Source: Candidatus Helarchaeota ASGARD archaeon Hel_GB_B (lineage in GTDB: Archaea > Asgardarchaeota > Lokiarchaeia > Helarchaeales > HEL-GB-B). Taken from it: a stretch of DNA of 16,696 nt. Below, piece by piece: positions 1 through 16,600 of the stretch. Position 1 is the first letter of the stretch; each line of letters begins with the position of its first letter. The notes below the pieces were generated by a model. The model had not been told where the DNA came from. It ran no database searches and worked only from the letters and a program-made list of their open reading frames with translations. The translations under genes and the position numbers were made by a program. The stretch lies in the NCBI GenBank assembly GCA_005191425.1, contig SUPR01000076.1, positions 1 to 16,696 on the forward strand, in the 5' to 3' direction.

Positions 1-2
1 AT

Positions 3-467
3 TTTATACCCCAAGAAGGGACTGCTAAATCACTTTTTCCAATACGCCGCATCGCTGCAGAAGGACGTAAATTTGGCGTTGGACTATGTGTTGTTAGCCA
101 AAGACCTGGTAAAGTCCATTCCGATGTTCTGAGCCAGTGTAATTCTCAAATTATTTTAAAAATAATTAACCCCCGCGATCAAAGTCAAATTGAAAACTCA
201 AATGAAGCGATTAGCTCTGATTTATTGGACGATCTGCCCAGCTTAAACAATGGAGAAGCTGTAATTACTGGTCCATCTATTATAATCCCTTCAATTGCAA
301 AAATTTACAAATTTAAAGGTGAACTTGGTGGAGATGATATTAATATACTAAAGGAATGGCAAAATGATGAAAAAATTGAAAATAAAAGCGGTCTTGACGA
401 GATAAATATGGACGAAGTTCAAGATTATACTTCCAATGCAAATCTGATTCGCGGTAAAAAGTGGTAA
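3..467 (+). CDS. herA: HerA ATPase/DNA translocase, C-terminal part (5'-truncated by the window edge)
   Basis: The frame of ORF 225..467 is open from base 3 and reads FIPQEGTAKSLFPIRRIAAEGRKFGVGLCVVSQRPGKVHSDVLSQCNSQIILKIINPRDQ...LPSLNNGEAVITG. EGRKFG, SQRP and LSQCN are HerA/FtsK-family signatures. It lies directly upstream of mre11-rad50, the usual archaeal context. Confidence 0.93.
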   Translation, partial: FIPQEGTAKSLFPIRRIAAEGRKFGVGLCVVSQRPGKVHSDVLSQCNSQIILKIINPRDQSQIENSNEAISSDLLDDLPSLNNGEAVITGPSIIIPSIAKIYKFKGELGGDDINILKEWQNDEKIENKSGLDEINMDEVQDYTSNANLIRGKKW

Positions 468-469
468 TT

Positions 470-1894
470 ATGGTTAAATGGTGCCATTTGTCTGACGTTC
501 ATTTGGGATATAAACAATATAATTTAATTGAGCGATACGAAGACTTCATCGATGCGTTTAATACGTGCATTGAATTAATTATTGAAAAACACCCTGACTT
601 CGTAATATTACCAGGGGATCTGTTTGAACACTTTAATCCTAAGCCTGCCACTCTTAGAAAATGTATAGTAATCTTGGAAAAATTAAAATTAAAAAACATC
701 CCAATTTTTGTATCAAGAGGAAACCACGATGTTTCTACTTCCAAATTTAAAAGATATGGCGGCGATGTTCTTGATTTATTACAAGATCTTTCTTTAATAA
801 ATTATATTAAAGACGATGTAGTAATTGTAAAAAAAGAGGGCAAAGAAATCGCACTAATCGCTGCTCTTGGCTATTACGGTAAAAAAAGTAGTCAAATGCT
901 AAGTTTGTTGTTAGAAAAGCATAAAACTATATTGTCAAGAAATGATTTACCAAAAATCTTAATGTTGCACGCTTTTTTAGAAGATATGATTACAAAAGGT
1001 GGAGAAGATTTAAAGATATATACATTAAATAGACTAAACTTTGATTATATAGCAATAGGACATTACCATTTACAATGGCCGAATAATTATAAAGCCCCTG
1101 GTAATAAAATCTTTTGTAGTGGAGCTACTGAACATAGAAGTTCACTCGAATGGAAACAAAGTACAAGAGGATTCTATTATGTTGAATGCGATAAAATCAA
1201 TAATTCTTTTAACATTACCCCTGAATTTATAGAATATAATGTGCGTCCTAAAAAAAGGATTGTTCTGGATTTAGGTAATATTTCAAAAGAAAAAGCAATA
1301 GAAAAAATATCCTCTGTTATTGCCCAAAACGATATTCCTGATATTTTATTAAGTATTGTCGTTAAAGGCTCACTTAAAAGTGGCGAAATTAAATTAATAG
1401 ACACTAATTCTCTCAAAAAAATTGCTAAAAATGCTCTAAGACTGGACATTATAACTGATTTTACTGATTCTTCAACAATAATATCCAGTAATGAAGATGA
1501 TATACGTGAAACGATGAGTGAAATTTTTAAAAAAATATTCAACATAAATTCAAACGATATACCAACGATGGTATCTCTTGTTGAAGAAATTATTAATAAT
1601 GTTGAAAATAAAGAATTTCAAGATAATTCACTTAAAATGATTAAATATTTTGAAAGAAACATGAAAACTAGTTTAGAAAAATTAATTTCACACGAAAAAA
1701 AAATCTCTAGTAATATCCTCATTGAAAAAATCAATAAAAATTCAAATATAAAAAATACTAAACCAATATCACTTGATAAAAATGAAAATTCTAAAAAATC
1801 TAAACAAGATGATGAAAAAAAATTGAAACCTAAAAGAAATAAAATTAAAAAAGAAAAATTAAAAGAACTAGGAATTAAAAGGTACTTAAAATGA
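470..1894 (+). CDS. mre11: Mre11 (SbcD-like) DNA double-strand break repair nuclease
   Basis: Calcineurin-like phosphoesterase motifs SDVHLG, GDLFE, GNHD, MLH and GHYH are all present, and the gene sits between herA and rad50. ATG at 470, two bases after the herA stop, is preferred over GTG at 461, which would overlap herA. It ends in a Lys-rich tail. Confidence 0.95.
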   Translation: MVKWCHLSDVHLGYKQYNLIERYEDFIDAFNTCIELIIEKHPDFVILPGDLFEHFNPKPATLRKCIVILEKLKLKNIPIFVSRGNHDVSTSKFKRYGGDVLDLLQDLSLINYIKDDVVIVKKEGKEIALIAALGYYGKKSSQMLSLLLEKHKTILSRNDLPKILMLHAFLEDMITKGGEDLKIYTLNRLNFDYIAIGHYHLQWPNNYKAPGNKIFCSGATEHRSSLEWKQSTRGFYYVECDKINNSFNITPEFIEYNVRPKKRIVLDLGNISKEKAIEKISSVIAQNDIPDILLSIVVKGSLKSGEIKLIDTNSLKKIAKNALRLDIITDFTDSSTIISSNEDDIRETMSEIFKKIFNINSNDIPTMVSLVEEIINNVENKEFQDNSLKMIKYFERNMKTSLEKLISHEKKISSNILIEKINKNSNIKNTKPISLDKNENSKKSKQDDEKKLKPKRNKIKKEKLKELGIKRYLK

Positions 1895-4683
1895 TATTAA
1901 ACTATTTATTTTTAAAAAATTTTAGGTCTTATTCTGAAGCAACTATTAATTTTATTGATGGTTATAATGTTATATTGGGCCAAAACGGTTCTGGAAAAAC
2001 TAATATCCTTCTGGGCATCGGTTTTGCGCTTTTTGGGTCAGTAAAAAAGGACGGTAAAGAAGTTAAATTAAAAGACCTTGTCAGACGAGGAGAAAAAAAA
2101 TGCGCAGTTGCTCTTGAATTTACTGTTTCCAGAATTACTTATAGAGTTGAGCGTACAATTGACTTAAATAAAAATAAAACAACAGCTAAACTTTATAAAA
2201 ATGACGCTTTTGTTAGTGAGAATTCAAAAACAGTTACCTCTGATATCGAATCAATACTAAAATTTAACAAATTGACATTTGAAAATATTGTTTATATCGG
2301 ACAAGGAGAAATTCCTAAAATTGCCTCTCAAGAGCCCAATAAAAGAAAAAAAATTTTTGATAAATTATTAGGGTTATCTGCTTATGAATGGGCGCATGAA
2401 AATTTAAAAGACGTTAAAAAGACTATTAAAAATGAATTAGAAGTAAAAAATGAAAAATATAAATTTTATCAAGAACATCTTAAAGAATTACCATTAAAAA
2501 AAGAGCAATTAAAGAATAATACTGACGAACTTAAAGAATTAATTGAGGAGAAAGAGCAATTAAAAGAAAAATATGAAAATAAAAAGAAAGAATTGGACGA
2601 TTTAGAGGAGATAAAAAAGAAATTAGACATAATTTCTAGAGATCTAAGTAATTATGAAACTAACTTAATCAAATTACATTCTCAATTGATTAAAAAAGGA
2701 GAATTTGTTGAAAAAAAACTGAATCGACCAATCGAACTTGATGAACAATATATTAGAAATATAGAGCAATCATTAATAGATAAAGAGCGATCTATTAAGC
2801 AAGACATAATTATTATTCAAGCTGCAATTGATTTTCAAAAGGAATTAGAATTTAATCTACAAAAAAATGAGAGTGATCTTAAAAAATATTTGAATAAGTC
2901 CAAAGATTTAAATAATTACATTGAAAATAAAATTAATTTATCTCTACAAGAATTACCTGCTCTTAATAATATTCCAGAAGATCAGTGGGAGTTATTTATT
3001 GCTCAAGAATTAAGTAATCTGAATTCTCAATCATCTTCCTTAGCCAAAAAAAAGGAGGAAATAATTAAAAAAGAAAAAGAATTGAAAATGAAAAAAGAAG
3101 GTCTTTCAAAATATGAAAATAAATTAGGTGATATTGAAAAAAAGTACGAAACTAAAAGACTTGAAATTGGTAAAATTGATACTAATTGGGAAACATTAAT
3201 CAAAAATTACTCAATCAATGATTTACAGGCTAGTGTTGGTAAATTAAATGAAGACATTGAATTGCATAATAAAAAGATAAATGAATTAAATACTGATTTT
3301 AATATTAAAAATAGTAAACTTCTTGAAATTCAAAATGATATCAATAATATTGAAAAATTAAAACAAGATGCTCAGTGTCCTGTATGTAAACAGATGGTTT
3401 CTGGGCAATATAAGGAGCTTATCCTTCAACAATTAAAAAAAACTCTCGAAACATTAGAATCCGAAATGGAAGAATTAAAAGTTGTAATTAATAATGAAAA
3501 ATCTATTCTAAATGAATTAAATAATACTCTTCAAAATAAAATGACATTAATTGACAAGCTACAAAAAATTTTTATGTTAAATAAAGAACTGGAACATTTT
3601 TCAGATGAAATAAATGATGTTAAGAATGAAATTAATAGTTTAAAGGAAGACATTTCTAAAATTTATATTGAAAATCCTTCTGAATATTACGACAAAGAGA
3701 TAAATAAAACACAAGAACATATTAACAGGGTAAAAAATATTGAAAGTGATATTAAAATCTTATCAGAAAAACGGAAGGAATTGGGTGCTTTAAAGCTAGA
3801 AATTGAAAAATTAAATGAAGATAGGAAATCTATCGAAGAAAAGTTCGATAAATCAAAATTAGACCAAGATTTAAATAAACGTTCATTATTAGATGAAGAA
3901 TTAAACGATATTACTTTAGTTAAACAAAGTTTAACAAATATACTCGAAATTATTAAAGATGAAAACGAGATTGAAGTAGTTTTGAATGAAAGAAAAAAAG
4001 AATACAAATCTTTAAATGAGAAATTTGATCAAAAATTATATAGTGCCCTGAATATTGAAGTAAAAGAATTATCTAAAAATTATAATGAGAAAACTGGAGC
4101 TATAATCCAAATAAAAGAAAAAATTATCCCGAACATAAATCGCGAAATCAATAAATTATTAAAAGAGAAAGAGGAACTCGAGAAAATAAATGAAGATCTT
4201 TATCATTTAAAAAGGCAACTTAACTTAGTCGAAATAATTAGACAATTTTTCCGTGAAATACCACAAATTCTTATACAGCAGCGCACAAGAAAAATTAGCG
4301 AAAAAGCCACTGAATTATTAAAATTAATTTTACCCTCAACCGAATTTGATAAAATTGTAGTTGAAAAAAATTATGATTTAAAGGTCTATAGATTTGGGAA
4401 TGCTGAAGATATCTCACAATTGAGTAGTGGAGAACAAATTGTAGTATGCCTAGCTATTAGATTAGCAATTTCTGATATTTTAGCTGGGCGGGAACTAATT
4501 ATGCTGGACGAACCAACTGCAAATTTAGATTCTGAAAATATTAAGCATTTAGTCGATATTTTTTACCAATTTAGGCCCTCTACTCAAATGATTACTATAA
4601 CTCATGACTCTGAATTTGAAAAAATTGCAGATAACCTTCTAAATGTTGAAAAGAAAAACGGACTTGAATCAGAAATTTATTAA
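1891..4683 (+). CDS. rad50: Rad50 SMC-like ATPase
   Basis: Walker A GQNGSGKTN, Q-loop YIGQGEI, long coiled coil, central zinc hook CPVC (codons 496-499, nt 3376-3387), signature LSSGEQ, Walker B/D-loop IMLDEPTANLD and H-loop ITHD. ATGA overlap with mre11 at 1891-1894. Confidence 0.96.
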   Translation: MILNYLFLKNFRSYSEATINFIDGYNVILGQNGSGKTNILLGIGFALFGSVKKDGKEVKLKDLVRRGEKKCAVALEFTVSRITYRVERTIDLNKNKTTAKLYKNDAFVSENSKTVTSDIESILKFNKLTFENIVYIGQGEIPKIASQEPNKRKKIFDKLLGLSAYEWAHENLKDVKKTIKNELEVKNEKYKFYQEHLKELPLKKEQLKNNTDELKELIEEKEQLKEKYENKKKELDDLEEIKKKLDIISRDLSNYETNLIKLHSQLIKKGEFVEKKLNRPIELDEQYIRNIEQSLIDKERSIKQDIIIIQAAIDFQKELEFNLQKNESDLKKYLNKSKDLNNYIENKINLSLQELPALNNIPEDQWELFIAQELSNLNSQSSSLAKKKEEIIKKEKELKMKKEGLSKYENKLGDIEKKYETKRLEIGKIDTNWETLIKNYSINDLQASVGKLNEDIELHNKKINELNTDFNIKNSKLLEIQNDINNIEKLKQDAQCPVCKQMVSGQYKELILQQLKKTLETLESEMEELKVVINNEKSILNELNNTLQNKMTLIDKLQKIFMLNKELEHFSDEINDVKNEINSLKEDISKIYIENPSEYYDKEINKTQEHINRVKNIESDIKILSEKRKELGALKLEIEKLNEDRKSIEEKFDKSKLDQDLNKRSLLDEELNDITLVKQSLTNILEIIKDENEIEVVLNERKKEYKSLNEKFDQKLYSALNIEVKELSKNYNEKTGAIIQIKEKIIPNINREINKLLKEKEELEKINEDLYHLKRQLNLVEIIRQFFREIPQILIQQRTRKISEKATELLKLILPSTEFDKIVVEKNYDLKVYRFGNAEDISQLSSGEQIVVCLAIRLAISDILAGRELIMLDEPTANLDSENIKHLVDIFYQFRPSTQMITITHDSEFEKIADNLLNVEKKNGLESEIY

Positions 4684-4700
4684 TGTATTTTTTTTCTCCT
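4684..4700 (+). terminator. Putative archaeal oligo-T terminator of the herA-mre11-rad50 operon
   Basis: T8 run at 4688-4695, immediately after the rad50 stop, within a pyrimidine-rich stretch. No experimental support. Confidence 0.45.
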
Positions 4701-4816
4701 TGTTATTAGGACCATTATTTCTTAATTTGGATCCGTTTTTTTCGTTATTAAATCTGGATATTTCTTAAAATTAAGATTAAATACTTTTAAATTTTTATTA
4801 TTTTACCGATTTTAAA

Positions 4817-7800
4817 TTATCTTATTTTTATTGTAGGATCGCCAAAAAAGATAAAAGAAAAACAAGTTGGATCAAAAAATTTTGATTTGTCTAGCATTTT
4901 CAAAGAATCGTTATATAATTCTAACCTGGATTCTAATAATAATTCACCAATTGTTTTATCGATTTGTTGTAAATTTTTATAAATATAGGTAGCAAATTTT
5001 CTTGCACTCTCGTCCATAATTTCCCACAAAGTTCCAATAAAGCAATTAGCTCCAGATTTAATAAATTGAGCAGCTAGCCCTTCTATTCCTGACCCTGCTT
5101 TTTGTATTTGCCCTGTAATACAAGCTGATGTAAATACTAGAGGATAACCTTCAATTAGACCTTTTTCTTTCACATATTTTTCTAAATCTTCTTGAAACAA
5201 AAATTCAGGCTCTCCTTCTTCTGGAGTTGATAGTATTAGACAGCTTTTATTATCAATAAAATGCCCATGTCCAGAAAAATGTATTATTTTTAGAGGTGTC
5301 TTAAAAATATTGAAAAGCCACTCTTTATCAATTTGTTCATCGATCTTTGCAATAATTTTATCACCAAAAATCCTCTGTATCTGATTTTTTAATATTTTAG
5401 CTTCTTTAATCGCTCCTTCTAACTTATATTCTCCTTCATATTTCGGAGCTATTATTACTACTTTCTCTCCCAATTTTGAAACCATTCTACGAAGCATATT
5501 AAAGGTTAGCATTACACTTGTATCAGAAATATCTGTTGAACATACTCTTCCTATACTTTTTAGAATACATAATGGCATTTTTGTATCATTATTTGAATAA
5601 CTATATAATTCAAAAGGAATTGGGATTCTACTTATTATAATGATATTTTGAGAATTTTCTAGCCCATTTTGAATTGAATTTGGCAATATTTCTCTAATAG
5701 ATTCACCAATTTTAATAATATCTTCTTGAGTAATTGAATTTTCTGAAGTAAATCTCAAAGAACTAAGCATATTTAAGATCGTGTGCTCTTTAATTGCTAA
5801 TTTTTCATCTTCTTTTATTATCCATATCATTGCAGGTTTATTTGCACCATAATTACTTGCCAAAGTTAAAAAGCTATAATCATTTTCAGAAAAAGAAGTT
5901 AAAATACTATTATTAACTAAATTCTTCTCTCCATATCCTGGGTATACCCGTTGTAAATATTCTGATCCTGTATAATTTTGAAAATCTTCAACAATTTTGG
6001 ACTTAAAAATATTATTAATTTTTATAATATGCTCAAAGTTGTCCATTGAATCAAAAATTTTAATCTTAGTTGTTGCTTTTCTTGGAATTTTAATTCCTTC
6101 AAAATTTCCAATTGCCCATATCTGATTTGCATTCAATAATATCTTTTTTGAGTTTTCAGAAGATAACTCGTCTTTAATTATAATACCTGACTGTGTATAT
6201 TTTATTAATGGTAATAATGAAAAAGCTATGACTGGGTCTTCAACGAGATATACATTATCATATTCATGGTCATAGACTTTTTTATTTAACAGTCCCATTT
6301 CACTTATAAATCGATTATATTCTATATATTTAATTGTAATTGCTGATTCAGAACTGGTTTTATATGTTTTACTCAATTTTTTATTAATATAATTCAATTC
6401 ATCTTCAATTATTCTCATTTTATTATAATATTCCTTATTAGAAGTGTAAATTATTATGTTACTCTTATTTTCATTCTCTTCATTTCCTGATAGTGAAGAC
6501 ATTAAATATATTAAATTCATTAATTCCTCTTTGCATTCTTCTACTGAATAGTCCATCATAAATTCTCCAAATATCAAAATTTGGTTTAATAACCCTGGAA
6601 ATTCGTTGCCAATTTCTTTTAAAAACCCTGAATAAATGTCCTTGTTTGATTTCCTTAAGAATTTTTCAGATATTTTTCCTTTATCTAAAAATAAAATTGG
6701 CGTATAATCAAAATTTAAAAAATTTGGATACCAATTTTGTTTGTACTTTAATTTATTAATGTATAAACATGAACTCAAGCAATATTTCCAGTTTGTTGGA
6801 TCTGTAAAAATAAATACACCCGAAAAAGTAGGATTTACATTACAATATAATGTAAAATTTATATTATGACCAAATCCCATATAGTCCAATTCTTCTTTAC
6901 TCTTAATTTTACTTCTTGGATTCTTCTTACCGACCAATCTTTTTATTAACTTGAATTTTAATTTGGTAGTTTTGTCATCTTTTTCTACATCAAAAGGAGA
7001 AAAATTAATGCGGAGGACCACATCATCTTGAATAATTAATGTTGCATTTTCTTGAACTTCCACAATACCTTGCGTTTCAATAACAAAAACATAATCTTTA
7101 TCTTGCATTTTTTGAGGTAATATAGAAAAAACATCTCTAGCGAATGGGTCTCCTTTCATTATTTGCGGTTTTTCTATTTTAAAATTTAATTTCAAGTCCT
7201 CTTCATAAATTCGCTCAATTATTGGATTTATCGACATAAATGTAAGTCCCGTTCTAAAAAAGCGCATTTCAGGATATGCTTTCTGTTCTTTAATTTCAAG
7301 ATTTGGTAAAAAATATAACTTAAATGAAACTGATCTGTTATAGTCATTATTTGTAAATTTTATGTTTTCTCCATCCAAATACAATGTTGACCCACTGAAA
7401 GTTAATTTATTGTTTCCTTCTATATGACAGACTTTCCTTTTCCATTTATTTGCCCAAAATTTTGCCTTGGGAAAATCAAAATGCTCTAACTCTTGGATTT
7501 TCTTTATTAAATTCTTATTAGCTTCTGTTGCTTCTTGTTGTGAAATTGTACCTTTATTTAAATAGTACGAAAATTCCCCTAAAAGATACCTAAACGGTAT
7601 TCGTTCCTCAACTTTTAAAAATGCTTTATCACCTAATTTTCTACTTACTTCTTCTTGCTTTTTGCAGTATTCTATTAATTCTTGATATAATTTTATTTTT
7701 TCATCAATTATTATTACTTTTTTTGGAATTTGTTCCCATAATAACATGATTAATTGGTCATAGATATGTTCCAATAATTTTAGATTATCCGAATCTTTAA

Positions 7801-8077
7801 AATAATCATATGCCTTCATAATAGCATTATATGCCTTGTTTTTCAGGTCAAATTGAATATCTCTAAATTTGTATCTATTAACTTTTTCTGCAAGAATTGA
7901 CAAACCCAATGAATATAAAAAGTAACCAATTGATTGTATTTTTTCGTCCTCTATATTATCTAATTCTTCAAAAATTTTAAATTTTGATTCAATTTCCTCT
8001 GTAAATTTTTTGTTGTCCAAATTATAATAACTCTCTAATAATTGCAAAATAGCGTCTTTAATTGTTTCCGTTTCCAA
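4817..8077 (-). CDS. Large (1086 aa) protein with a C-terminal CHAT (caspase HetF-associated, clan CD) cysteine protease domain and intact His/Cys dyad
   Basis: C-terminal CHAT motifs: IPIPFELY, IIHFSGHG (His937, nt 5267-5269), PLVFTSAC (Cys986, nt 5120-5122), GLAAQFIKSGANCFIGTLWEIMDESA and FIFFGDP. The N-terminal ~210 aa look helical and ~220-410 look beta-rich, by eye. The TTG start is supported by GGAGGT 8 nt upstream. Confidence 0.88.
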   Translation of the reverse strand: METETIKDAILQLLESYYNLDNKKFTEEIESKFKIFEELDNIEDEKIQSIGYFLYSLGLSILAEKVNRYKFRDIQFDLKNKAYNAIMKAYDYFKDSDNLKLLEHIYDQLIMLLWEQIPKKVIIIDEKIKLYQELIEYCKKQEEVSRKLGDKAFLKVEERIPFRYLLGEFSYYLNKGTISQQEATEANKNLIKKIQELEHFDFPKAKFWANKWKRKVCHIEGNNKLTFSGSTLYLDGENIKFTNNDYNRSVSFKLYFLPNLEIKEQKAYPEMRFFRTGLTFMSINPIIERIYEEDLKLNFKIEKPQIMKGDPFARDVFSILPQKMQDKDYVFVIETQGIVEVQENATLIIQDDVVLRINFSPFDVEKDDKTTKLKFKLIKRLVGKKNPRSKIKSKEELDYMGFGHNINFTLYCNVNPTFSGVFIFTDPTNWKYCLSSCLYINKLKYKQNWYPNFLNFDYTPILFLDKGKISEKFLRKSNKDIYSGFLKEIGNEFPGLLNQILIFGEFMMDYSVEECKEELMNLIYLMSSLSGNEENENKSNIIIYTSNKEYYNKMRIIEDELNYINKKLSKTYKTSSESAITIKYIEYNRFISEMGLLNKKVYDHEYDNVYLVEDPVIAFSLLPLIKYTQSGIIIKDELSSENSKKILLNANQIWAIGNFEGIKIPRKATTKIKIFDSMDNFEHIIKINNIFKSKIVEDFQNYTGSEYLQRVYPGYGEKNLVNNSILTSFSENDYSFLTLASNYGANKPAMIWIIKEDEKLAIKEHTILNMLSSLRFTSENSITQEDIIKIGESIREILPNSIQNGLENSQNIIIISRIPIPFELYSYSNNDTKMPLCILKSIGRVCSTDISDTSVMLTFNMLRRMVSKLGEKVVIIAPKYEGEYKLEGAIKEAKILKNQIQRIFGDKIIAKIDEQIDKEWLFNIFKTPLKIIHFSGHGHFIDNKSCLILSTPEEGEPEFLFQEDLEKYVKEKGLIEGYPLVFTSACITGQIQKAGSGIEGLAAQFIKSGANCFIGTLWEIMDESARKFATYIYKNLQQIDKTIGELLLESRLELYNDSLKMLDKSKFFDPTCFSFIFFGDPTIKIR

Positions 8078-8079
8078 TT

Positions 8080-9870
8080 TTATTGACCTCCAATTTTAGA
8101 TTTTTCATCACCAAATAATGAAAAACTAAACCAAGAATATTTCATTCCCCAATTATATTCAAATATTTGTTTTCTCGTTAAGTTTAAAGCTTTTGAGATG
8201 GGCTCTCCTTTTAGGAGTAGCTTTTGAAATAATAATATAAACTCAAGAAAATCCTCTTTACTTAAGGTAATAAAATTAGTAAGAAAATTACAATTACTCT
8301 TCAATATAGGAATTGCATTATAAAATGAATGTTCTAAATATTCTATTTTTTGATTTTGAATTATATTTCCCATTATAAATAATCTAGGGAATGATTTCGC
8401 TGATTTATAAATATTTGAAAGTAATATTTCAGATCTACCCCATTTTAATTTTATTTCAGGTATTTCTTCTGCAAATTTCTTAAAATTTCCAAGATAGACT
8501 ACTATATCATAATCTTTATCTAAGATTTGGTCGATTTCACTATGCCCTCCTTCACTTAAAATAGAAATATTACACTTATTGTTATTTAATTTCTTAATTT
8601 TATTTTTAATTTCATTATCTTTTGTTCTATAAATAAATAATATACTAATATTTTTTCCTTTATTAATCGTAGAAATATTTTCCGGATAAATACTATTTTC
8701 TTCAACAAACTTTCGAATTAAATAATCTTTTAAACAAATAAATTGTCTATTATTAAAAATTAGCTCAAAAGGAAACTTAATATTCTTAAAATCATTTTGT
8801 ATGATTACATTTTGGTCAGTTACTAATCTATTTCTATAATTTATTTTACTACCCATTAAATATTTCAGCAAATATTCTCCCAATTTTCTTAAACCGTCAA
8901 AATACTTAACTTTTAATTTTTCATCAATGTTTTTTGATTTCCTCACATTATTTAAAACCTGAATGTAATCTTGTACTTTTTTTCCCATGTTTTTAATAAT
9001 TGTGCTCGAAACTTTTATACTGTCTTTTTCTGGACGTAATGCAAACATGGGATCATATGTTATTTTTAAACTTTGACCGGAAGAAACATATTTTAATTTA
9101 AAATTCGTATCAAAAGATAATTTGTAATTATCTAAATTAATATTTTTATCTTTTATTTCCTCCAAGATCTTTTGTAAATGTCTGGCATCATTATACATCT
9201 CATCATTAGCAAAAACTACATAAATTTCATGATTTTTTTCAAGAAGTTTATTTGCTTTTTTAACAATGTCCAATAGGTCCGTTTTTTTAAATAGATATTG
9301 ATCTAATTGTTCTCCAAATCCATGCATCCTTGTATATATTATTCCCTCTTTGTTGTAATTAATAGGATCTGAAAATGAAATGTCAATACTATGTCCAATA
9401 TTAAATGTATTTAAAGTCTCTATTAATTTAGGTAGAACATTTTTATCTCTCCAATTAAATCCTCTAAACTCCCAAAATAAATTAACATCGTTTAATTTAA
9501 CTGAATTAAAAAAATCATTAAAATTCTTAAAAAAAGTATCATTAAATTCCTGAAAATAATGCGTTTCCATTAGTAATTTATTACTTTTCAAATTTTGCAT
9601 CAAATTTCTAATTTTCTCAAAAGTTTCCAGCGCCTCTTCTCTTAAATTTGAATATAAAAATTGATATTTATGCGTAATAAACCTGTTCATTTTTATAACA
9701 AATTCAAAATCGCTAGATTTACTAGATAATTTATTTAATTTAGTTAATTCATCTTTTGAAATAAATCGATAGAATGTATTAGCTAATTCTACAAACTGGA
9801 AATATTTAGGATATTCAGAAATTTGAACGCGTGTAACTTTTGGAAAATAAGTACAACTAATTTTAATCAT
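8080..9870 (-). CDS. DUF72 (YecE-like TIM barrel) fused to a catalytically dead CHAT-like domain, 596 aa
   Basis: Residues 1-238 carry DUF72 motifs in order: FVELANTFY, FEFVIK...ITH, FWEFRG, IYTRMHG, YVVFAND-MYNDA. Residues ~325-592 carry CHAT scaffold motifs: LRKLGEYLLKYLM, FPFELIFNNRQFICL, GEPISKALNLTRK and WFSFSLFGD. The dyad positions read VVYLGNF and PRLFIMGN. Confidence 0.8.
   Translation of the reverse strand: MIKISCTYFPKVTRVQISEYPKYFQFVELANTFYRFISKDELTKLNKLSSKSSDFEFVIKMNRFITHKYQFLYSNLREEALETFEKIRNLMQNLKSNKLLMETHYFQEFNDTFFKNFNDFFNSVKLNDVNLFWEFRGFNWRDKNVLPKLIETLNTFNIGHSIDISFSDPINYNKEGIIYTRMHGFGEQLDQYLFKKTDLLDIVKKANKLLEKNHEIYVVFANDEMYNDARHLQKILEEIKDKNINLDNYKLSFDTNFKLKYVSSGQSLKITYDPMFALRPEKDSIKVSSTIIKNMGKKVQDYIQVLNNVRKSKNIDEKLKVKYFDGLRKLGEYLLKYLMGSKINYRNRLVTDQNVIIQNDFKNIKFPFELIFNNRQFICLKDYLIRKFVEENSIYPENISTINKGKNISILFIYRTKDNEIKNKIKKLNNNKCNISILSEGGHSEIDQILDKDYDIVVYLGNFKKFAEEIPEIKLKWGRSEILLSNIYKSAKSFPRLFIMGNIIQNQKIEYLEHSFYNAIPILKSNCNFLTNFITLSKEDFLEFILLFQKLLLKGEPISKALNLTRKQIFEYNWGMKYSWFSFSLFGDEKSKIGGQ
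8086..8091 (-). promoter_or_regulatory. Shine-Dalgarno site (GGAGGT) for the CHAT gene, embedded in the last codons of the upstream gene
   Basis: The minus strand reads GGAGGT-CAATAAAA-TTG, with TTG at 8077. Confidence 0.75.
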
Positions 9871-9910
9871 TTAAAATCCACTGATAATTTAATTCTTTTA
9901 AAAAAAAACT

Positions 9911-9930
9911 AGAAAATCTTATATAAATTT
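9911..9930. promoter_or_regulatory. Candidate TATA box in the 124-bp divergent intergenic region
   Basis: TTATATAA at 9919-9926 reads as TTTATATA on the minus strand, about 50 nt upstream of the DUF72-CHAT start and about 70 nt upstream of the MBL start. The AT-rich background makes this weak. Confidence 0.35.
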
Positions 9931-9994
9931 AATCCTACCTTTTATTTTTAAAAAACAAAAAAAAATTAAAGGGAAATAAAATCTATTTTAACAT

Positions 9995-10678
9995 ATGAAA
10001 TTGGAAATTTCAATTATATATGATAATACCTCAATAACTGGATTTAAACATGGATGGGGCTTTTCTACACTTATTAAAGTTCAATATGACAGTGAAACAA
10101 AAAATATCTTGTTTGATACTGGAGCAAATAAAGAAATACTTTTCTATAATATGGAAAAACTAAAAATCAACCCGAAGAATATTGATATAATTGTTCTTTC
10201 CCATCCACATTTTGACCATGCAGGTGGGCTACCTTATATTTTAAAAATTAAAGATGACGTTGATGTTTATTTACCAAAATTTATAGGTCCTCTTGATAGA
10301 ACTGAAATCTATTCATATGGGAGTAATAGAACTAAATTCATTGATGTTGAGGGTATTGTTGAAATTACCGACAATGTTAAGTGCGTATGTACAAAAGAAA
10401 TTTTCGAACAATTTCTTATGGTGCATCTTTCTAAAGGGCTATTCATAATATCTGGTTGCGCTCACCCCGGATTAGGTAGAATAATCGATTTTACTAAAAA
10501 CTATGGTAAAATATTTGGTGTAATGGGCGGTTTTCATGGCTTTGCGAAACTTGAAAAGTTAAAGGATATAGATTTTATAGCTCCATGTCATTGCACAAGT
10601 CAAACCGATGCGATAAAAAGACTCTATCAAGATAAGGTCCATGATTGTGGTGCAGGTAAGCAATATGAATTAATATAA
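9995..10678 (+). CDS. Metallo-beta-lactamase-fold hydrolase, COG1237 type (family often annotated as a methanopterin-pathway synthase)
   Basis: HGWGFS, ILFDTG, SHPHFDHAGG (HxHxDH), SGCAHPG, GGFH and PCHCT match this archaeal MBL subfamily. The substrate cannot be assigned from sequence. Confidence 0.85.
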   Translation: MKLEISIIYDNTSITGFKHGWGFSTLIKVQYDSETKNILFDTGANKEILFYNMEKLKINPKNIDIIVLSHPHFDHAGGLPYILKIKDDVDVYLPKFIGPLDRTEIYSYGSNRTKFIDVEGIVEITDNVKCVCTKEIFEQFLMVHLSKGLFIISGCAHPGLGRIIDFTKNYGKIFGVMGGFHGFAKLEKLKDIDFIAPCHCTSQTDAIKRLYQDKVHDCGAGKQYELI

Positions 10679-10788
10679 TAAAAAAGAATTGATATAAATT
10701 TAAATATTCATAAATTAATGATAATTTAATAAATAAATTAACTACACTTTACAAGATTTTTTAAAAAATTATGGTTTTGAGTGTATAT

Positions 10789-10813
10789 TGCTAATTTATG
10801 CTAATTTATGCTA
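10789..10813. repeat. 10-bp tandem repeat (TGCTAATTTA x2.5) overlapping the acyl-CoA ligase stop codon
   Basis: The sequence reads tgctaattta tgctaattta tgcta at 10789-10813. Confidence 0.85.
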
Positions 10814-12422
10814 CTTGACGTTCTTTTCCTTCCCAATATTTCTTGCGTAATTCGCGTTTTAAAATTTTTCCTTGTGCACTTTTAGGTAATGTCCTTTTAA
10901 AAGTTATACTTTTAGGCGCTTTATATCTCGCAATCTGATCTTTTACATGGTCTATTAATTCTTCTGCAGTGACATTGACACCTTTTTTATATCCTTTTTT
11001 CAAAACAACAATTGCGTGTACTGCTTCTCCCCATCGTTCATCCGGAATCCCAATAACTGCACATTCTAATACAGCGGGATGGGTTTGTAATGCATCTTCT
11101 ACTTCCTTTGTATAAATGTTTTCTCCGCCGGAAATTATCATATCTTTCCTTCTATCAACGACAAATAAATATCCTTCTTCATCTAAATATCCCATATCTC
11201 CTGTATATACCCAGCCATTTCTTTTAGTTTCTTTTGTTTTTTCCGGTTTATTCCAATATTCGATAATTCTAGTATCGGTTTTTGCTACAATTTCTCCAAT
11301 TTGTCCAGGCGGTAATTCATTACCTTTTTCATCAATTATTTTTATGATTACATTCACAAGTGGTTTACCTGCAGACCTTAAAAGATATTCGTACTTAGGG
11401 TCTGATATTGCTTTTTTATGGTCGTTGGCATCAAGAATTGTTAAAGCTGGCCCTGTTTCTGTCTGACCAAATAATTGACCAAATACTGCATTAGGAAATA
11501 ATTCCATTGATTTCTTTAAGACTGTAGGAGAAATTGGTGAAGCTCCATACACTATTCCCCTAATATTTAAGAAATATTTTTTATAATTTTTTATTTCTGG
11601 CGAATTAATTAAAAAATTTAACATAGTAGGTACAGCACTAAACCCTGTAATCCCTTGATTTTTTATTGTTTCAAAAATATTATGTACTACAAATCTACGA
11701 TGTAAATATACTTCAATATTTAATTGAGCAAGGGTTAATAATCCCAGTGTGGCAGCAGTATGAAATAATGGCATGCCAGGAATTAATGTCTTATCGTCTG
11801 GGTTAAAACTCCCGGTACCTAAACTTGATGCCGCTACTAATATTGGATTTCCAGCCACTCCTCTATGTGCCATTACGACTCCTTTTGGAAAGCCTGTTGT
11901 ACCGCCTGTATATTGAATAAACGCAGGTTCTGTATCTTTTAAATTAAAATTTGGTGGTTCATCACTTGGATAATCATATAATGAATCAAATAAAATTTGT
12001 TTGTCCCCAATTTCTCCGCTATCGGAAACACAGATCCAATTCTTTATTGATTTATTTTTTTCTCTAAAATAATTTATATAATTATTAAATCCTTCCCCAA
12101 AAATAAGTGTGTTTGGCGTACAATCATTTAACATATAAATTAATTCGTTCTTATTTGACATATAATTTAATGGGACACATAAAGCTCCTATTTTTGGGAT
12201 TGCAAAAAATGAAATTACCAGTTGATCACAATTTTCCAAAATCAATGCAACTCGCGTACCTTTTTTAACATTTAAGTCTAATAATGCATTTGAAATCGAG
12301 TTTACTCTATTATTTAATAACTTCCATGTATAATCTCTCCCTTCAAAATGAAGCCACATCTTCTTTGGATACATTATAGCATTTCTTAAAACTATATCGC
12401 CTATTAAGACCACTTCTATCAC
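10806..12422 (-). CDS. fadD: Long-chain fatty acid--CoA ligase / acyl-CoA synthetase (ANL superfamily)
   Basis: P-loop YTGGTTGFPKG, FGQTE, YTGDMGYLDEEGYLFVVDRRKDMIISGGENIY and terminal KSAQGKILKR. GTG start at 12422; the exact start and the substrate are uncertain. Confidence 0.9.
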   Translation of the reverse strand: MIEVVLIGDIVLRNAIMYPKKMWLHFEGRDYTWKLLNNRVNSISNALLDLNVKKGTRVALILENCDQLVISFFAIPKIGALCVPLNYMSNKNELIYMLNDCTPNTLIFGEGFNNYINYFREKNKSIKNWICVSDSGEIGDKQILFDSLYDYPSDEPPNFNLKDTEPAFIQYTGGTTGFPKGVVMAHRGVAGNPILVAASSLGTGSFNPDDKTLIPGMPLFHTAATLGLLTLAQLNIEVYLHRRFVVHNIFETIKNQGITGFSAVPTMLNFLINSPEIKNYKKYFLNIRGIVYGASPISPTVLKKSMELFPNAVFGQLFGQTETGPALTILDANDHKKAISDPKYEYLLRSAGKPLVNVIIKIIDEKGNELPPGQIGEIVAKTDTRIIEYWNKPEKTKETKRNGWVYTGDMGYLDEEGYLFVVDRRKDMIISGGENIYTKEVEDALQTHPAVLECAVIGIPDERWGEAVHAIVVLKKGYKKGVNVTAEELIDHVKDQIARYKAPKSITFKRTLPKSAQGKILKRELRKKYWEGKERQVA

Positions 12423-12610
12423 ATTCCTTCTTTTATTAAATTTTAAGGTTTGCCTTAAAAATATTTATGGTCTTTTTCCCTTTAAATTATTATATTATTT
12501 GAATTATTAACTTAAGTTTTGAATTTTATTATATTACTTTTTTATCAATTTACTGATCTTTACTTTTAAATTTAACTCCAATGTTTTATTGATCTTTTTA
12601 AAATATAAAT

Positions 12611-12961
12611 CTATAGGGTTTCTTTTTCGAGTCCAGCATGTACCTTATCTCACCAAAATCGCCTTGTAAATTTAAGTGCCAGATAAATTCTATCATGGTA
12701 TATTCCAAGTTCATATGTTGTAGATTCTTTTGTGAAGAAGAATCAAAAAACAAAATGGAATGTATCTTTATAATCTTGATTAAGTTTTGATTGTTTTTAA
12801 GACGAGTTGGATTTGTATATAATACTTTATGATTCTATAGCCTCATCAAAATAACATAAAAAAACTTGATAAAAAGATTCTACATTTTTTAATGGAATTT
12901 CTCTCCCCATATCTTCCTCAGTTCCAGTTTCGGTATCACTTTCGAAAAAGTATTCTACCAT
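12611..12961 (-). pseudogene. Decayed gene of unknown family, downstream of the CBS pseudogene
   Basis: GAGGT (12974-12970) lies 8 nt before ATG 12961. The frame reads MVEYFFESDTETGTEEDMGREIPLKNVESFYQVFLCYFDEAIES*SIIYKSNSS*KQSKLNQDYKDTFHFVF*FFFTKESTTYELGIYHDRIYLALKFTRRFW*DKVHAGLEKETL*. Stops are at 12829, 12799, 12745, 12652 and 12613. The 3' end is uncertain and may extend to ~12535. Confidence 0.55.
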
Positions 12962-12969
12962 ATAATTTT

Positions 12970-12974
12970 ACCTC
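12970..12974 (-). promoter_or_regulatory. Shine-Dalgarno site (GAGGT) of the second decayed gene
   Basis: The minus strand reads TAA-ATAAT-GAGGT-AAAATTAT-ATG between the CBS pseudogene stop and ATG 12961. Confidence 0.6.
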
Positions 12975-12979
12975 ATTAT

Positions 12980-13434
12980 TTAAGAAAATGTTGTATCATA
13001 CGCTCGAGAGTATCTCTTTACTCTCTCCATAAATTTTTCATGAATTAATTCTATAATTTTTTCATCTGATGTAAATGCAATTCTTTTAACCGGAGATTTA
13101 CTAAACTCGTCTCTCAAATCTTCAATACTGGTAAATAGCTTATCCCCATCTATTGAAATGATTTTTTCACTATAATGTTCTCCGTTTTATAACCATATAT
13201 TTTTTTATTACCATCCAGAACTAATTTCCAAATAATTTTGTCAGGTATCACTCCCACTATTTTTCCCTACTCTCTTTTAATACAAAAGACCGTATCTACC
13301 CAGTTTTCCACCATCTTTTAAGCAACTTTTGGTATTGAATCATAACTATAACAACAAATGATGCGAGAACTCATGATATCTTTAATTATAGTAAGAGAAA
13401 CAGGCTTAGCTCCAGTCAAAACTTTTACATTCAT
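12980..13434 (-). pseudogene. CBS-domain pair protein pseudogene
   Basis: Manual translation gives MNVKVLTGAKPVSLTIIKDIMSSRIICCYSYDSIPKVA*KMVENWVDTVFCIKRE*GKIVGVIPDKIIWKLVLDGNKKIYGYKTENIIVKK, a frameshift in an A6 run at 13167-13162, then IISIDGDKLFTSIEDLRDEFSKSPVKRIAFTSDEKIIELIHEKFMERVKRYSRAYDTTFS*. IKDIMS...KMVEN...GKIVGVI is a CBS pattern. In-frame stops are TAA 13320 and TAG 13269. The 455-nt span is one base short of a multiple of 3. Confidence 0.82.
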
Positions 13435-14075
13435 TCTTTCTTTAGAGTATTCTATCGTTTCTTTAAATTTTTCTATGATTCTTATTTTAAAATCGAATTA
13501 ATATAAAAAACAAAACTTAAATCTTTCTGGTAATTTATGTGAATTTCTCAAATATATGATTTTCTTTTAAAATATTTGAGACAATGATTAATATAGATTA
13601 AATTAAAATAAATCATCTGCATCAGGTTATATATAATAAAAAAATAGTCTATCTGTAAATAATATAATTTAAAATGTTAAGTTTTTATTTTTATATTAAT
13701 TTTAAATAAAAATATTCAATACTATATATTTATTCAAGGAAAAAATTTTGTTTTTTCATATTTTTATTAATTTTTTCCTTTAAAATGAGAGAAAAGGATA
13801 CGTGTGATTTGTTTTTAAACATTGAAAATCTTGATAAGAAAAATTGATAATTCTTAATTATAGCGAAAATATTCATATTTAGGAATATATCCTTCTCTAT
13901 TACTATTTAAGAGAATTTTACTAAAATTAATATAATGAACATTTTTAAATAATTACTATACCATTTGATTAAAAACTGAGATCTTAATAACTCACATCAA
14001 ATAATTATAATTTTAATAAATAACCTTTATTATAAATTCAAACTACTTTCTACTTCTCTTTCACTAACCAACAAG

Positions 14076-14142
14076 AAACCTTGTCAAAAAGAAGGTTTTG
14101 ACAAAAATTATAGTCATTAAGCCAGAACGAAAATTTGTCAAA
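14076..14142. promoter_or_regulatory. Operator-like inverted repeat upstream of the 14229/14886 genes
   Basis: Perfect 9-bp inverted repeat TTGTCAAAA (14081-14089), 6-nt spacer, TTTTGACAA (14096-14104). An overlapping second one is AAACCTT (14076-14082) / AAGGTTT (14092-14098). An extra half-site TTGTCAAA lies at 14135-14142. Confidence 0.55.
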
Positions 14143-14228
14143 TTATATTTATTCTAGGAAATATCAATATTAATTAGAAATATTTTAAAAATGAAAAAAA
14201 ATAATGAAAAAAATAGAGATGTAATAAA

Positions 14229-14849
14229 ATGGATGTATTAGATTTAGAGCCCATAAATGAAAAAAAAGTCTTTTTATTTTTGTTAGTAAAAGAAAAAACT
14301 GGGATCTTTAATACTGAAGCGATAAATCTACTGGATTTATTTAGAGAAAACAAATTTGATCTAATAACTAGCGATTTAGATACAGAAAACAAATTTAATA
14401 TGAAAATTACAAAGTATTTAGACAATTTTGAAATGCATGTTTTTAAAGTGGGTATTCCTGAAAATGCTAATGGTTATTTAAAGGAAGAATTAGATCGAAA
14501 AAAGTGCCTTATGAAAGAATTAGCTGATGTATATGAAATATTAGAAGATAAAAAATCTTTTAAAGCTCAAAATATCAAAGTTTGGATAGATCTACTTAAA
14601 GATGATATTGAAAAAGAAGAATATGAATTGGATTTCAAAATCAGACCTCAATGGATCATGAAAAAATTCCTAGATTTTATTCGAAAAACTGATCAAGCTG
14701 TAATAAAACTCTTACATTTTACATCAGAAGGATTATTTGATGAGTTGAAGAATCTTGGGAAAGAAATGAACATGACCGTTTATGCTTTTGAAATTATGGA
14801 GCCTGAGATTTCAAAAAAATGGGTTTTATATCCGAAATGCATGAAATAG
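14229..14849 (+). CDS. Hypothetical protein, stand-alone paralog of the N-terminal domain of the downstream Mtd fusion
   Basis: It aligns by eye along its length with residues 1-218 of 14886..16580: MDVLDLEPINEKK / MEVLELEPLKEKK; VGIPENANGYL / VDISQNALDYI; WIDLLKDDIEKEEYELDFKIRPQWIMKK / WRDYLKRSYDEEEQDIRLRVREAWMFMK; FDELKNLGKEM / FNGLSNLADEL. Confidence 0.8.
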   Translation: MDVLDLEPINEKKVFLFLLVKEKTGIFNTEAINLLDLFRENKFDLITSDLDTENKFNMKITKYLDNFEMHVFKVGIPENANGYLKEELDRKKCLMKELADVYEILEDKKSFKAQNIKVWIDLLKDDIEKEEYELDFKIRPQWIMKKFLDFIRKTDQAVIKLLHFTSEGLFDELKNLGKEMNMTVYAFEIMEPEISKKWVLYPKCMK

Positions 14850-14870
14850 GCTTTTAATTTATTATATTTT

Positions 14871-14876
14871 AGGAGG
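14871..14876 (+). promoter_or_regulatory. Shine-Dalgarno site (AGGAGG) for the Mtd fusion gene
   Basis: AGGAGG lies 9 nt upstream of ATG 14886, supporting this start and therefore the N-terminal extension. Confidence 0.75.
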
Positions 14877-14885
14877 TTTTAAAAA

Positions 14886-16580
14886 ATGGAAGTATTAGAA
14901 CTTGAACCTTTAAAGGAAAAAAAATTAAAATTGTTTTTGGTAGAATACGAATATCCAATAAATTTCTATATGGATCAAAAAAAATACAACGAGAGAGAAT
15001 TTCTTAATTTAAAATTCATCTCGCGGAACTATGTTGATTTTATAGAAAGTCTAATCAAAGAAAATCATCCTGCATTTATAGTTGAAGAGGGTGGGATGCG
15101 CACTAAAGACGAATTTTTATATGACAACCATCTAATTGAATTGTATAAGAAATATGAATTACCCTTCGACATGGTTGATATCTCCCAAAATGCTCTTGAT
15201 TACATAAATGATACAATGCAAGATAAAAAGAATCTACTCGACGCTATTGAAAGTGAGTTGGCCAAATTAGTTATAAATAAAGATTTATCGAAAAGTAATG
15301 AGTTATATATACAAAAATTGATGATGTGGAGAGATTATCTAAAGAGATCTTATGATGAAGAAGAGCAAGATATTCGGCTCAGAGTAAGAGAAGCCTGGAT
15401 GTTCATGAAGATATTAAAGATGGCCGAGAAATTTGAAGCAAAGAAAATAAATGCCATGTTTCTATGTGATAAAAGACATTTTAATGGTCTCTCAAATCTT
15501 GCAGATGAATTGGGAGTAAATATTGTAAAAATAGAAATAAATAAGATCGTAAAAAATGTGAATCCATCAGGTGAAAATTTAGAAATTATTGATTTAATTA
15601 ATAAAGCAGACCTTGATATAGTTCCAATCAAAGTAAAAGCGGTTGATAAATCTGAAAAAATTCTTTACTTCTTTGATACAGATGAATATGCATCCCCGTT
15701 TGATATAAATATGGCATATGATGCTGGCTTCGATGTGGTTGTTCCTTTTAACAATATGACGGCGGATAAAGTCCAAAAACTCGTGCAAGATGCAATTTTT
15801 TCCAGAAAACCAAAATCGCCGACTGCGTTTTTTATTGGAGGATCAAATGTTAAAGAAGGAGAAAAAATCGCAAAAAAAGTTCTGAAATCATTCGTCCCTG
15901 GCTTTGAAACCCCAGTTATCATAGATCCAAGGGGTTCTCATACAACCGCATCTGCACTGGTTGCAAAAACTGAACAACTTGCCGCTGAGTTAGGTATTAA
16001 TAGTCTTGAAGGCAAAAAGGTGGTAGTTTTGGGTACCGGTCCAGTTGGACAATTGACATCTATTCTAGCCGCCAAACTTCGGGCTAAAGTATATTTGGTC
16101 GAAACTTGGGATGGAGCTACTGAGGAATATGTGAAAAATCTTGCAGATGAATTAACAGATAAAGCCGGCGAGAATGCCACCAAAATAACCGGGGTATATG
16201 CGACAAATGATGAAAGTAAATTTGAAATTTTGAAAGATGCAAATATAGTTTGGTCTGTTGCAGCAGCTGGTATCCAGATAGTATCTAAGGAACTGGCTGA
16301 GAAATTATCTCCAAATACTATAGTCGCAGATATCAATGCGGTCCCTCCAATGGGAATTGAAGGGATGAAACCTAATACAGATAAAAAAGAAATTTATCCT
16401 GGTGTATTTGGTATTGGACCATTATCCATTGGTAGAATAAAATATACAACCGAAAATAAGATACTTGCAAAAGCTGCAAAATCCAAGGGCAAGAAAATTT
16501 TCGATTACAATAAAGCATTCGAGATTGCAAGAAGTCTTTTAGGTTTAGAATATAAGAAAATAATGGTGGAAATTAAATAA
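14886..16580 (+). CDS. mtdB: NAD(P)-dependent methylene-tetrahydromethanopterin dehydrogenase (MtdA/MtdB family) with a ~250-aa N-terminal extra domain
   Basis: From residue 258: KILYFFDTDEYASPFDINMAYDAGF, VQDAIFSR, FIGG, DPRGSHTTASA, Rossmann motif VVVLGTGPVG, ADINAVPPMGIEG and GIGPLSIGRIKY, all characteristic of MtdA/B. This is not the F420-dependent Mtd of methanogens. MtdA versus MtdB cannot be resolved by eye. Confidence 0.88.
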   Translation: MEVLELEPLKEKKLKLFLVEYEYPINFYMDQKKYNEREFLNLKFISRNYVDFIESLIKENHPAFIVEEGGMRTKDEFLYDNHLIELYKKYELPFDMVDISQNALDYINDTMQDKKNLLDAIESELAKLVINKDLSKSNELYIQKLMMWRDYLKRSYDEEEQDIRLRVREAWMFMKILKMAEKFEAKKINAMFLCDKRHFNGLSNLADELGVNIVKIEINKIVKNVNPSGENLEIIDLINKADLDIVPIKVKAVDKSEKILYFFDTDEYASPFDINMAYDAGFDVVVPFNNMTADKVQKLVQDAIFSRKPKSPTAFFIGGSNVKEGEKIAKKVLKSFVPGFETPVIIDPRGSHTTASALVAKTEQLAAELGINSLEGKKVVVLGTGPVGQLTSILAAKLRAKVYLVETWDGATEEYVKNLADELTDKAGENATKITGVYATNDESKFEILKDANIVWSVAAAGIQIVSKELAEKLSPNTIVADINAVPPMGIEGMKPNTDKKEIYPGVFGIGPLSIGRIKYTTENKILAKAAKSKGKKIFDYNKAFEIARSLLGLEYKKIMVEIK

Positions 16581-16600
16581 TCATTTTCTAATTGAAACCA

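Follow-up and report, generated by a model that had tools for sequence, protein, structure and literature searches.

Two genes encoded back to back in the genome of a helarchaeal archaeon, both ending in a CHAT fold, raise the question of whether a catalytically dead protease domain encoded by one gene may control the live protease encoded by the other. The genes are located in a stretch of 16,696 nucleotides (nt) of Candidatus Helarchaeota archaeon Hel_GB_B (contig SUPR01000076.1, positions 1 to 16,696), hereafter the window, which is the whole stretch of DNA that was analysed. CHAT proteases, relatives of caspases and separase, are triggered effectors in prokaryotic immunity. The minus strand of the window carries two long co-oriented open reading frames (ORFs), gene A and then gene B. 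Gene A (8080..9870, ATG start) encodes a DUF72-pseudoCHAT protein of 596 amino acids (aa; P0001), and gene B (4817..8077, TTG start) encodes a protein of 1086 aa (P0002), consisting of TPR-like, beta-sandwich, alpha-beta and CHAT protease parts. The pair hints at a regulated protease switch. In the favoured reading, to which a probability of about 0.5 is assigned, the two proteins would form a two-subunit, regulated, cytoplasmic caspase-like protease, in which the dead CHAT domain has a docking or regulatory role and activity is coupled to a ligand of DUF72.

Organization of the gene pair

The stop codon of gene A (TAA, 8082-8080) is followed after 2 nt by the TTG start codon of gene B at 8077, and the ribosome-binding site of gene B, GGAGG (8087..8091), read from the sequence, is located within the final codons of gene A, 9 nt before the TTG. 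All features of the two genes given here and below are on the minus strand. This layout, with the second ribosome-binding site inside the first gene, had been described in the original prediction, made from the DNA sequence alone, and the coordinates bear it out.

Active CHAT protease encoded by gene B

The active CHAT protease domain, assigned by Pfam, comprises residues ~791-1086 of gene B (4820..5707). Residues 884-1058 match the family CHAT (PF12770, clan CD) with an E value of 1e-20, the score of 74.4 bits exceeding the cut-off of 24; a second match, to Peptidase_C25, extends over residues 871-1084 with an E value of 4e-13. The Pfam CHAT match was found in 7 of 7 gene B homologues. The catalytic histidine H937 of the FSGHG motif (codon 5267..5269) and the catalytic cysteine C986 of the TSAC motif (codon 5120..5122) are invariant in the seven homologues and fall on the dyad positions when unrelated CHAT proteins are aligned with gene B. 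The dyad proposed for gene B in the original prediction agrees with these data, and gene B is, judging by its sequence, a true member of the CHAT family.

Three regions precede the protease domain. The TPR-like helical N-terminal domain (residues 1-215; 7433..8077) is modelled by AlphaFold2 (AF2) with a predicted local distance difference test score (pLDDT) of 75-93, and in VIA comparisons it is similar to the TPR domains of NASP/LGN (Z score 11-12) and to the TPR of Csx29 (7xsr_C; Z 10.6). The beta-supersandwich (residues ~216-415; 6833..7432), recognized from AF2 strands of moderate pLDDT, matches GH38 C-terminal and mutarotase-like sandwiches in VIA (Z ~12). Both are matches to generic folds and serve only for the description of the architecture. 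The middle alpha/beta region (residues ~416-790; 5708..6832) is predicted with pLDDT <50; no Pfam match was found in it, and hhalign, applied to residues 465-790, revealed neither internal repeats nor similarity to CHAT. The AF2 model of gene B as a whole is poor (mean pLDDT 54.5), with no confidence for residues 416-790 and for the protein's own CHAT domain. One AlphaFold DB cluster, 1114 aa in length, aligns with gene B from the sandwich to the CHAT domain (E 3e-9), and the overall layout may thus also be present outside the gene B family. A feature search of the ESM Atlas with residues 1-780 gave no usable match.

Pseudo-protease domain of gene A

The C-terminal domain of gene A (residues ~300-596; 8083..8973) was assigned to the CHAT fold by distant CHAT matches, fold comparison and hhalign. 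No Pfam match to the C-terminal half of gene A was detected, and Pfam CHAT matches two of seven gene A family members weakly (E 0.007). The search of 1.84 billion representative proteins by phmmer with residues 250-596 alone yielded 19 distant matches (E 4e-9 to 1e-3, ~25% identity), all 19 of which are Pfam CHAT proteins, each aligned over its CHAT domain; some distant CHAT relatives of this domain also match Peptidase_C50 weakly. VIA superimposed residues 403-586 of the gene A model on the CHAT domain of SAVED-CHAT (8tl0_B; Z 12.1, root-mean-square deviation 3.0, 156 residues) and the model on the CHAT domain of DdvA (8rw5; Z 11.8), and Foldseek matched the model to Csx29 (8eex_B; E 1e-5). 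The model is of low confidence (mean pLDDT 55.9, 7-row alignment), with a local pLDDT of 65-78 in the CHAT region; its usable parts are the DUF72 barrel and part of the pseudoCHAT domain.

In the test for the catalytic dyad, asparagine was found in place of both residues. N462 (codon 8485..8487) occupies the position of the catalytic histidine, G461-N462 being aligned with G936-H937 of gene B, and N502 (codon 8365..8367) occupies that of the catalytic cysteine, being paired with C986 by hhalign. Across the gene A family the histidine position is occupied by N, T or A and the preceding glycine is invariant, as are G501 and N502. MAFFT shifts the cysteine position by two residues, to Ile504; cysteine is absent under either alignment. 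A dead CHAT domain with asparagine at both positions, as originally predicted, was thus found, and the C-terminal half of gene A is a pseudo-protease with a CHAT fold, not an active member of the family.

Alignment of the dead CHAT of gene A with the live CHAT of gene B by hhalign gave an E value of 5e-5 and a probability of 67% over 100 columns, and BLASTP between the two domains was not significant (E 0.25); their kinship is apparent only via profiles and intermediate sequences. The dead domain contains 70 invariant columns across six sequences and has a mean column identity of 64%, the DUF72 domain and the live CHAT reaching 71% and 76%, respectively. The number of invariant columns and the column identity accordingly characterize the dead CHAT as a maintained pseudo-protease under strong purifying selection, not a decaying remnant.

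The closest outside relative of the dead domain (E 4e-9) is found in P0015, a protein of 794 aa from another Asgard assembly (L044 6001-8385), in which a live CHAT domain (motifs SGHS and NMCE) is followed by a dead one (motifs CGNA and NAEE). Its orthologue is encoded in genome G212 (L046 1483-3822). In the dead domains of the two proteins, histidine is replaced by asparagine, and cysteine is replaced by glutamate or serine. Comparison of the A-B pair with P0015 gave 47 bits between the dead domains and 28 bits between the live ones, while the two domains of P0015 itself gave 66 bits; since the latter are closest to each other, P0015 represents an independent duplication and not the ancestor of the A-B pair. 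The combination of live and dead CHAT domains thus recurs in these archaea, in P0015 within one protein. P0015 is encoded beside a TIR-domain gene, and P0015/L046 together with this gene looks like a separate candidate conflict system of the TIR-plus-caspase-like type. The genome of the window encodes 8 CHAT proteins. In a related Helarchaeales genome, a protein of 541 aa (L047 769-2394, G003:C125) with an N-terminus that is Macro-like by eye and an apparently active CHAT domain (AGHA, NACE) was also noted.

DUF72 barrel of gene A

The DUF72 TIM-barrel domain comprises residues ~1-240 of gene A (9151..9870), on the basis of a Pfam match and a fold match. Residues 16-233 match Pfam DUF72 (PF01904) with an E value of 2e-23 and 84 bits against a cut-off of 25.3, and a profile built from five full-length members of the gene A family matches PDB entries 1vpq/1vpy with an E value of 7e-4. 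In VIA, residues 1-238 of the model were superimposed on 1vpq with Z 16.7, the solved DUF72 structures giving Z 16-17; among xylose-isomerase-like barrels, endonuclease IV gave Z 12.9 and UV-damage endonuclease (UVDE) gave Z 12.5. The barrel postulated in the original prediction is confirmed by these matches.

Gene A was compared with canonical DUF72 proteins of the same genome and its relatives. The family-invariant polar set retained in gene A includes E28, N31, K60, H67, H104, E134, R136, D163, R181 and H183, of which E28, N31, K60, H67, E134, R136, R181 and H183 align with canonical DUF72 residues (motifs E..N.TFY, K....TH, E.R..W and R.HG). The N-terminal GWSY..W motif of canonical proteins is lost from the fused copy. 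Stand-alone DUF72 proteins, namely E. coli YecE, TM1631 (1vpq) and EF0366 (1vpy), share the TIM barrel and the conserved motifs with gene A, whereas the barrel of gene A lacks GWSY..W and is joined to a pseudo-protease. A word-indexed search with the DUF72 half of gene A alone found nothing.

The nearest relative of the fused DUF72 domain is a DUF72 paralogue of 320 aa specific to Helarchaeales. Two stand-alone DUF72 genes are arranged in tandem on a separate contig of the genome of the window (L016 256-2256, G000:C76): one is canonical (285 aa, RWHG motif), and the other is the Helarchaeales-specific form of 317 aa, in which RIFG replaces R.HG and a C-terminal extension of ~90 residues is present. 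This 317-aa form is the closest relative of the fused domain.

Linkage and translational coupling of the genes

Full-length homologues of gene A, 47-61% identical, were found only in metagenome-assembled genomes of the Helarchaeales type; a search of 5.8 billion clustered proteins yielded two of them, and the loci of gene B homologues provided more. Gene B has six relatives, 54-68% identical. Wherever the DNA upstream of the CHAT gene can be read, the DUF72-pseudoCHAT gene directly precedes it; this is the case in the window, L001, L002/L003/L006 (one lineage), L004, L005 and the fragment L007, which represent about six Helarchaeales lineages. The linkage in related genomes on which the original prediction had staked its case thus holds in every readable contig. 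In all lineages the two genes overlap or are separated by no more than 2 nt, and GGAGG in the final codons of gene A is kept in all six related lineages. No gene of the A or B family without its partner was found wherever flanking DNA was readable.

In L002 (11769) and L006 (1709), the TTG start codon called for the CHAT gene is located upstream of the conserved motif AAGGAGGAG. The true start in this lineage is probably a few codons later, and gene calling is therefore the likely cause of the apparent 17-nt overlap with gene A.

A decayed copy of the module was found in G004, a genome of the same genus (L021 1501-1957 = G004:C8:11945-12401). It consists of an ORF of 71 aa similar to residues 1-72 of gene A (50% identity) and an overlapping ORF of 92 aa similar to residues ~1017-1085 of gene B (51% identity). 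The first 71 codons of gene A thus abut the last ~70 codons of gene B, which indicates that a single deletion of ~4.6 kb removed the core of both genes. The remnant is surrounded by AIM24, an RNase J-like beta-CASP gene, a WD40 gene and a proteasome subunit gene; no intact copy of the module was found in G004, which is 93% complete.

Always adjacent, translationally coupled and lost together, genes A and B are predicted from these comparisons to be one operon. The strict adjacency and the coupling site, conserved through three changes of context, the joint loss, and the failure to find either family without the other where flanks are readable all argue against functional independence of the two proteins, in which A and B would be co-transcribed only and the dead CHAT would scaffold some other partner. 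Such independence, in whose favour there is no evidence of contact between proteins A and B, is considered very unlikely.

Genomic neighbourhoods and distribution

Genome neighbourhoods of the pair are of three kinds. In the window and L001, the pair adjoins the Rad50 end of the NurA-HerA-Mre11-Rad50 operon: in the window, the plus-strand genes of HerA (partial), Mre11 and Rad50 run convergently toward gene B, and a small metallo-beta-lactamase gene is divergent from gene A. An additional ORF of 174 aa, absent from the window, is located between the CHAT gene and Rad50 in L001. In L004, the pair adjoins the NurA end divergently, with a 248-bp spacer. In L002 and L005, it is found between a gene of the CoA-ligase type and genes of an amino-acid permease or Roc GTPase. 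The constant adjacency of A and B across three unrelated neighbourhoods indicates that the pair moves as a unit.

The position of the pair beside the repair operon in two arrangements and the UvdE/EndoIV-like fold of DUF72 suggest, circumstantially, a link to DNA damage. The module might accordingly be an accessory of double-strand-break or DNA-adduct repair, acting with NurA-HerA-Mre11-Rad50. DUF72 would then recognize DNA that is damaged or blocked by protein, leaving the protease to remove the proteins at that site or to process them. The Rad50-end and NurA-end arrangements both keep the pair at the operon, and DUF72 is a UvdE-like barrel whose genes are reported to be enriched in the vicinity of damage-response genes, polB2 and SRAP (PMC11791011). 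However, L002, L005 and the decayed copy of G004 are located among unrelated housekeeping genes, the pair in L002 and L005 being far from repair genes, rearrangements nearby can keep adjacency without selection, and Pfam SRAP was not found in the genome of the window, which is 94% complete. The NurA-HerA-Mre11-Rad50 operon is generally kept by archaea, whereas 399 of 400 Asgard species genomes lack the module. Weakened by these data, a repair accessory is an unlikely explanation of the module.

The only true member of the module among the 400 Asgard species genomes is that of the genome of the window, and searches of genome contigs and metagenome contigs for related loci revealed no new relatives. 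A role in defence is suggested by this patchy distribution, by the clean loss from the same-genus genome G004 and by what CHAT proteases usually do, namely, act as effectors of prokaryotic immunity. The module could be an antiviral or conflict system of abortive-infection type, whose CHAT protease would respond to an infection cue by degrading host or viral proteins. The TIR-domain gene beside P0015 and the number of CHAT proteins in the host genome are consistent with such a system. Against it, no defence model was matched: PADLOC-DB 2.0 contains no families for the protein of gene A or gene B at E<=1, and the dead domain has no matches in plasmid and phage collections. The four neighbourhoods consist of housekeeping genes and include no defence island, and synteny suggests vertical descent, not mobility. 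A defence function is therefore possible but doubtful.

Comparison with known CHAT systems

Gene B and Csx29, the TPR-CHAT protein of the type III-E Craspase, have in common an N-terminal TPR-like domain and a C-terminal CHAT domain with a His/Cys dyad, and in both cases the protease is presumed to be under the control of a co-encoded partner. Csx29 is a partner-regulated protease of the TPR-then-CHAT layout (PMC9729208). Unlike Csx29, gene B contains an additional beta-sandwich and an alpha/beta region of ~370 residues, and its partner is a DUF72-pseudoCHAT protein instead of an RNA-guided effector. Neither Cas7-11, Csx30 and Csx31 nor a crRNA is present at the A-B locus, and no genes of Cas7-11 and Csx30/Csx31 were found among the genes of the window and four related neighbourhoods. 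Membership in Craspase was ruled out by the absence of Cas7-11 and Csx30.

SAVED-CHAT (8tl0), a ligand-activated protease of the type III-B/CBASS-like kind, provides the best structural match for the C-terminal domain of gene A. In contrast to SAVED-CHAT, the A-B locus contains neither a SAVED domain nor a cyclic-oligonucleotide synthase, and the matched domain of gene A is devoid of catalytic residues. No Pfam SAVED match was detected in the protein of gene A or gene B, and membership in SAVED-CHAT was ruled out for lack of this domain.

Control of a live protease by a pseudo-protease is known for cFLIP/caspase-8 and, within a single protein, for separase. In cFLIP/caspase-8, and in separase with its SD and CD domains, a dead clan-CD domain regulates a live one, which offers the A-B pair an analogy only: homology is no closer than the level of the clan, and neither protein has a Pfam match to Peptidase_C14 or Peptidase_C50 (for C50, none at E<=1). 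Tandem live-plus-dead CHAT proteins (P0015/L046, the DdvA type and the giant double TPR-CHAT proteins) likewise combine one active and one inactive CHAT domain. In these proteins both domains belong to one polypeptide and in P0015 are recent duplicates, whereas the domains of the A-B pair are encoded by separate coupled genes and are very divergent, and the dead one is joined to DUF72.

By analogy, the A-B module most resembles in function the partner-regulated CHAT proteases Csx29 and SAVED-CHAT and pairs of pseudo-protease and protease. No description of a DUF72-CHAT fusion or of the A-B pair was found in PADLOC, Pfam architectures or the literature, the coverage of the latter being incomplete; to this extent the architecture appears new, as had been originally supposed.

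Known CHAT systems cleave a co-encoded effector, namely, Csx30 in Craspase and PCaspase in the SAVED-CHAT cascade (10.1101/2023.06.23.546230, PMC9729208), and gene A might similarly be a substrate or pro-effector of gene B. The protease, activated via its own TPR or beta-sandwich, would then cut gene A at residues ~240-330 and free the DUF72 enzyme, possibly a nuclease, while the dead CHAT would be an inhibitory pro-domain or a handle presenting A to the protease. The full polar, metal-ligand-like set of residues and the EndoIV/UVDE-like fold of DUF72 are as expected for an active enzyme, and no alternative candidate substrate is conserved in the neighbourhood. The linker that joins the barrel to the dead CHAT has a low-confidence prediction and may be flexible. 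However, no cleavage motif was identified, and this linker, with its predicted strands, helices and conserved residues, is a poor fit to a simple disordered tether. Flow of information from A to B and from B to A fits the evidence equally well; cleavage of A as such is regarded as improbable.

Proposed mechanism

In the favoured reading, that of a two-subunit regulated protease, gene B supplies the only working protease centre of the pair (H937/C986), located behind the TPR-like domain and the beta-sandwich, and the proteins of A and B would form a complex. The dead CHAT of A would be a docking or regulatory piece that restrains or switches on the live protease, whose activity would thereby depend on what DUF72 binds or processes. 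A nucleic-acid structure or lesion is proposed as the likeliest ligand, since UvdE and endonuclease IV are the folds nearest to DUF72. The protease would cleave target proteins whose genes lie elsewhere in the genome.

The complex is inferred from the presence of one working centre and a conserved dead copy attached to DUF72, combined with the adjacency, coupling and joint loss of the genes. The live/dead precedent of P0015 and the TPR-then-CHAT layout of gene B, the same as in Csx29, support the pair by analogy.

Several observations weigh against this mechanism. Contact between A and B was neither observed directly nor predicted: a complex prediction from the alignments of the gene B CHAT and the gene A pseudoCHAT gave a score of 0.00 against a mark of 0.32, which is no answer either way, and confidence is low for either AF2 model (pLDDT 55-56). 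As the similarity of the dead CHAT domain to the live one is only remote, a symmetric heterodimer of the caspase type is not implied. DUF72 has no assigned function (PMC11791011), and with the GWSY motif lost, the fused copy might serve in binding, act as an enzyme or do neither. In addition, no conserved substrate gene was found beside the pair in the neighbourhoods compared. The interpretation given in the original prediction is accordingly supported as regards the architecture, linkage and translational coupling, but so far not as regards a CHAT:CHAT heterodimer of the cFLIP/caspase-8 type and lesion sensing by DUF72.

A more specific proposal is a protease switch at DNA lesions or DNA ends. 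DUF72 would read damaged or protein-blocked DNA at or near the substrates of Mre11-Rad50, and the dead CHAT would license the live protease, which would clear DNA-bound proteins or trigger damage-induced arrest or death. This switch is considered quite unlikely.

Other features of the window

The window is AT-rich (23-36% G+C), and the pattern of strand skew agrees with the orientations of genes. A candidate archaeal TATA-like box, TTTATATAA (9919..9927, minus strand), read from the sequence, is located ~50 nt upstream of the ATG of gene A. Among the repair genes, HerA and Mre11 overlap by 7 bases (461-467) and Mre11 and Rad50 by 4 bases (1891-1894), which fits a translationally coupled repair operon.

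In the region 12423-14228 (1.8 kb), the ORFs of all frames are limited to 78 codons or fewer; its G+C content falls to 0.20, with a strand skew like that of coding DNA. An Rfam scan gave no matches in this region or elsewhere in the window, and no similarity of the region to related loci was found, only weak AT-rich repeats being present. A decayed gene or a long stretch of non-coding DNA could account for it. Two adjacent plus-strand ORFs, 14229-14849 and 14886-16580, have near-alike N-termini, MDVLDLEPINEKK and MEVLELEPLKEKK, which points to a tandem duplication of the N-terminal domain found in the longer, dehydrogenase-like protein (14886-16580).

DNA of the window recurs in metagenomes of hydrothermal vents and marine sediments from several studies; no RNA runs were listed as containing it.

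Significance of the module

The module, found so far only in Asgard archaea, is rare and conserved as a unit. The co-encoded partner of its CHAT protease is a DUF72 barrel with a conserved dead protease domain, and not a CRISPR effector or a nucleotide sensor. Control of the live protease by the dead one, if shown, would provide a prokaryotic example of a pseudo-protease regulating an active protease as a separate protein. DUF72 is a very widespread family with solved structures, and a ligand in the A-B module would give the first functional handle on it; the recurring position beside NurA-HerA-Mre11-Rad50 makes the link to DNA damage directly testable. Were the switch at DNA lesions true, it would represent the first biochemical role for DUF72 (YecE), a family of bacteria and archaea, and would show that DNA damage can activate a caspase-like protease in the archaea closest to eukaryotes.

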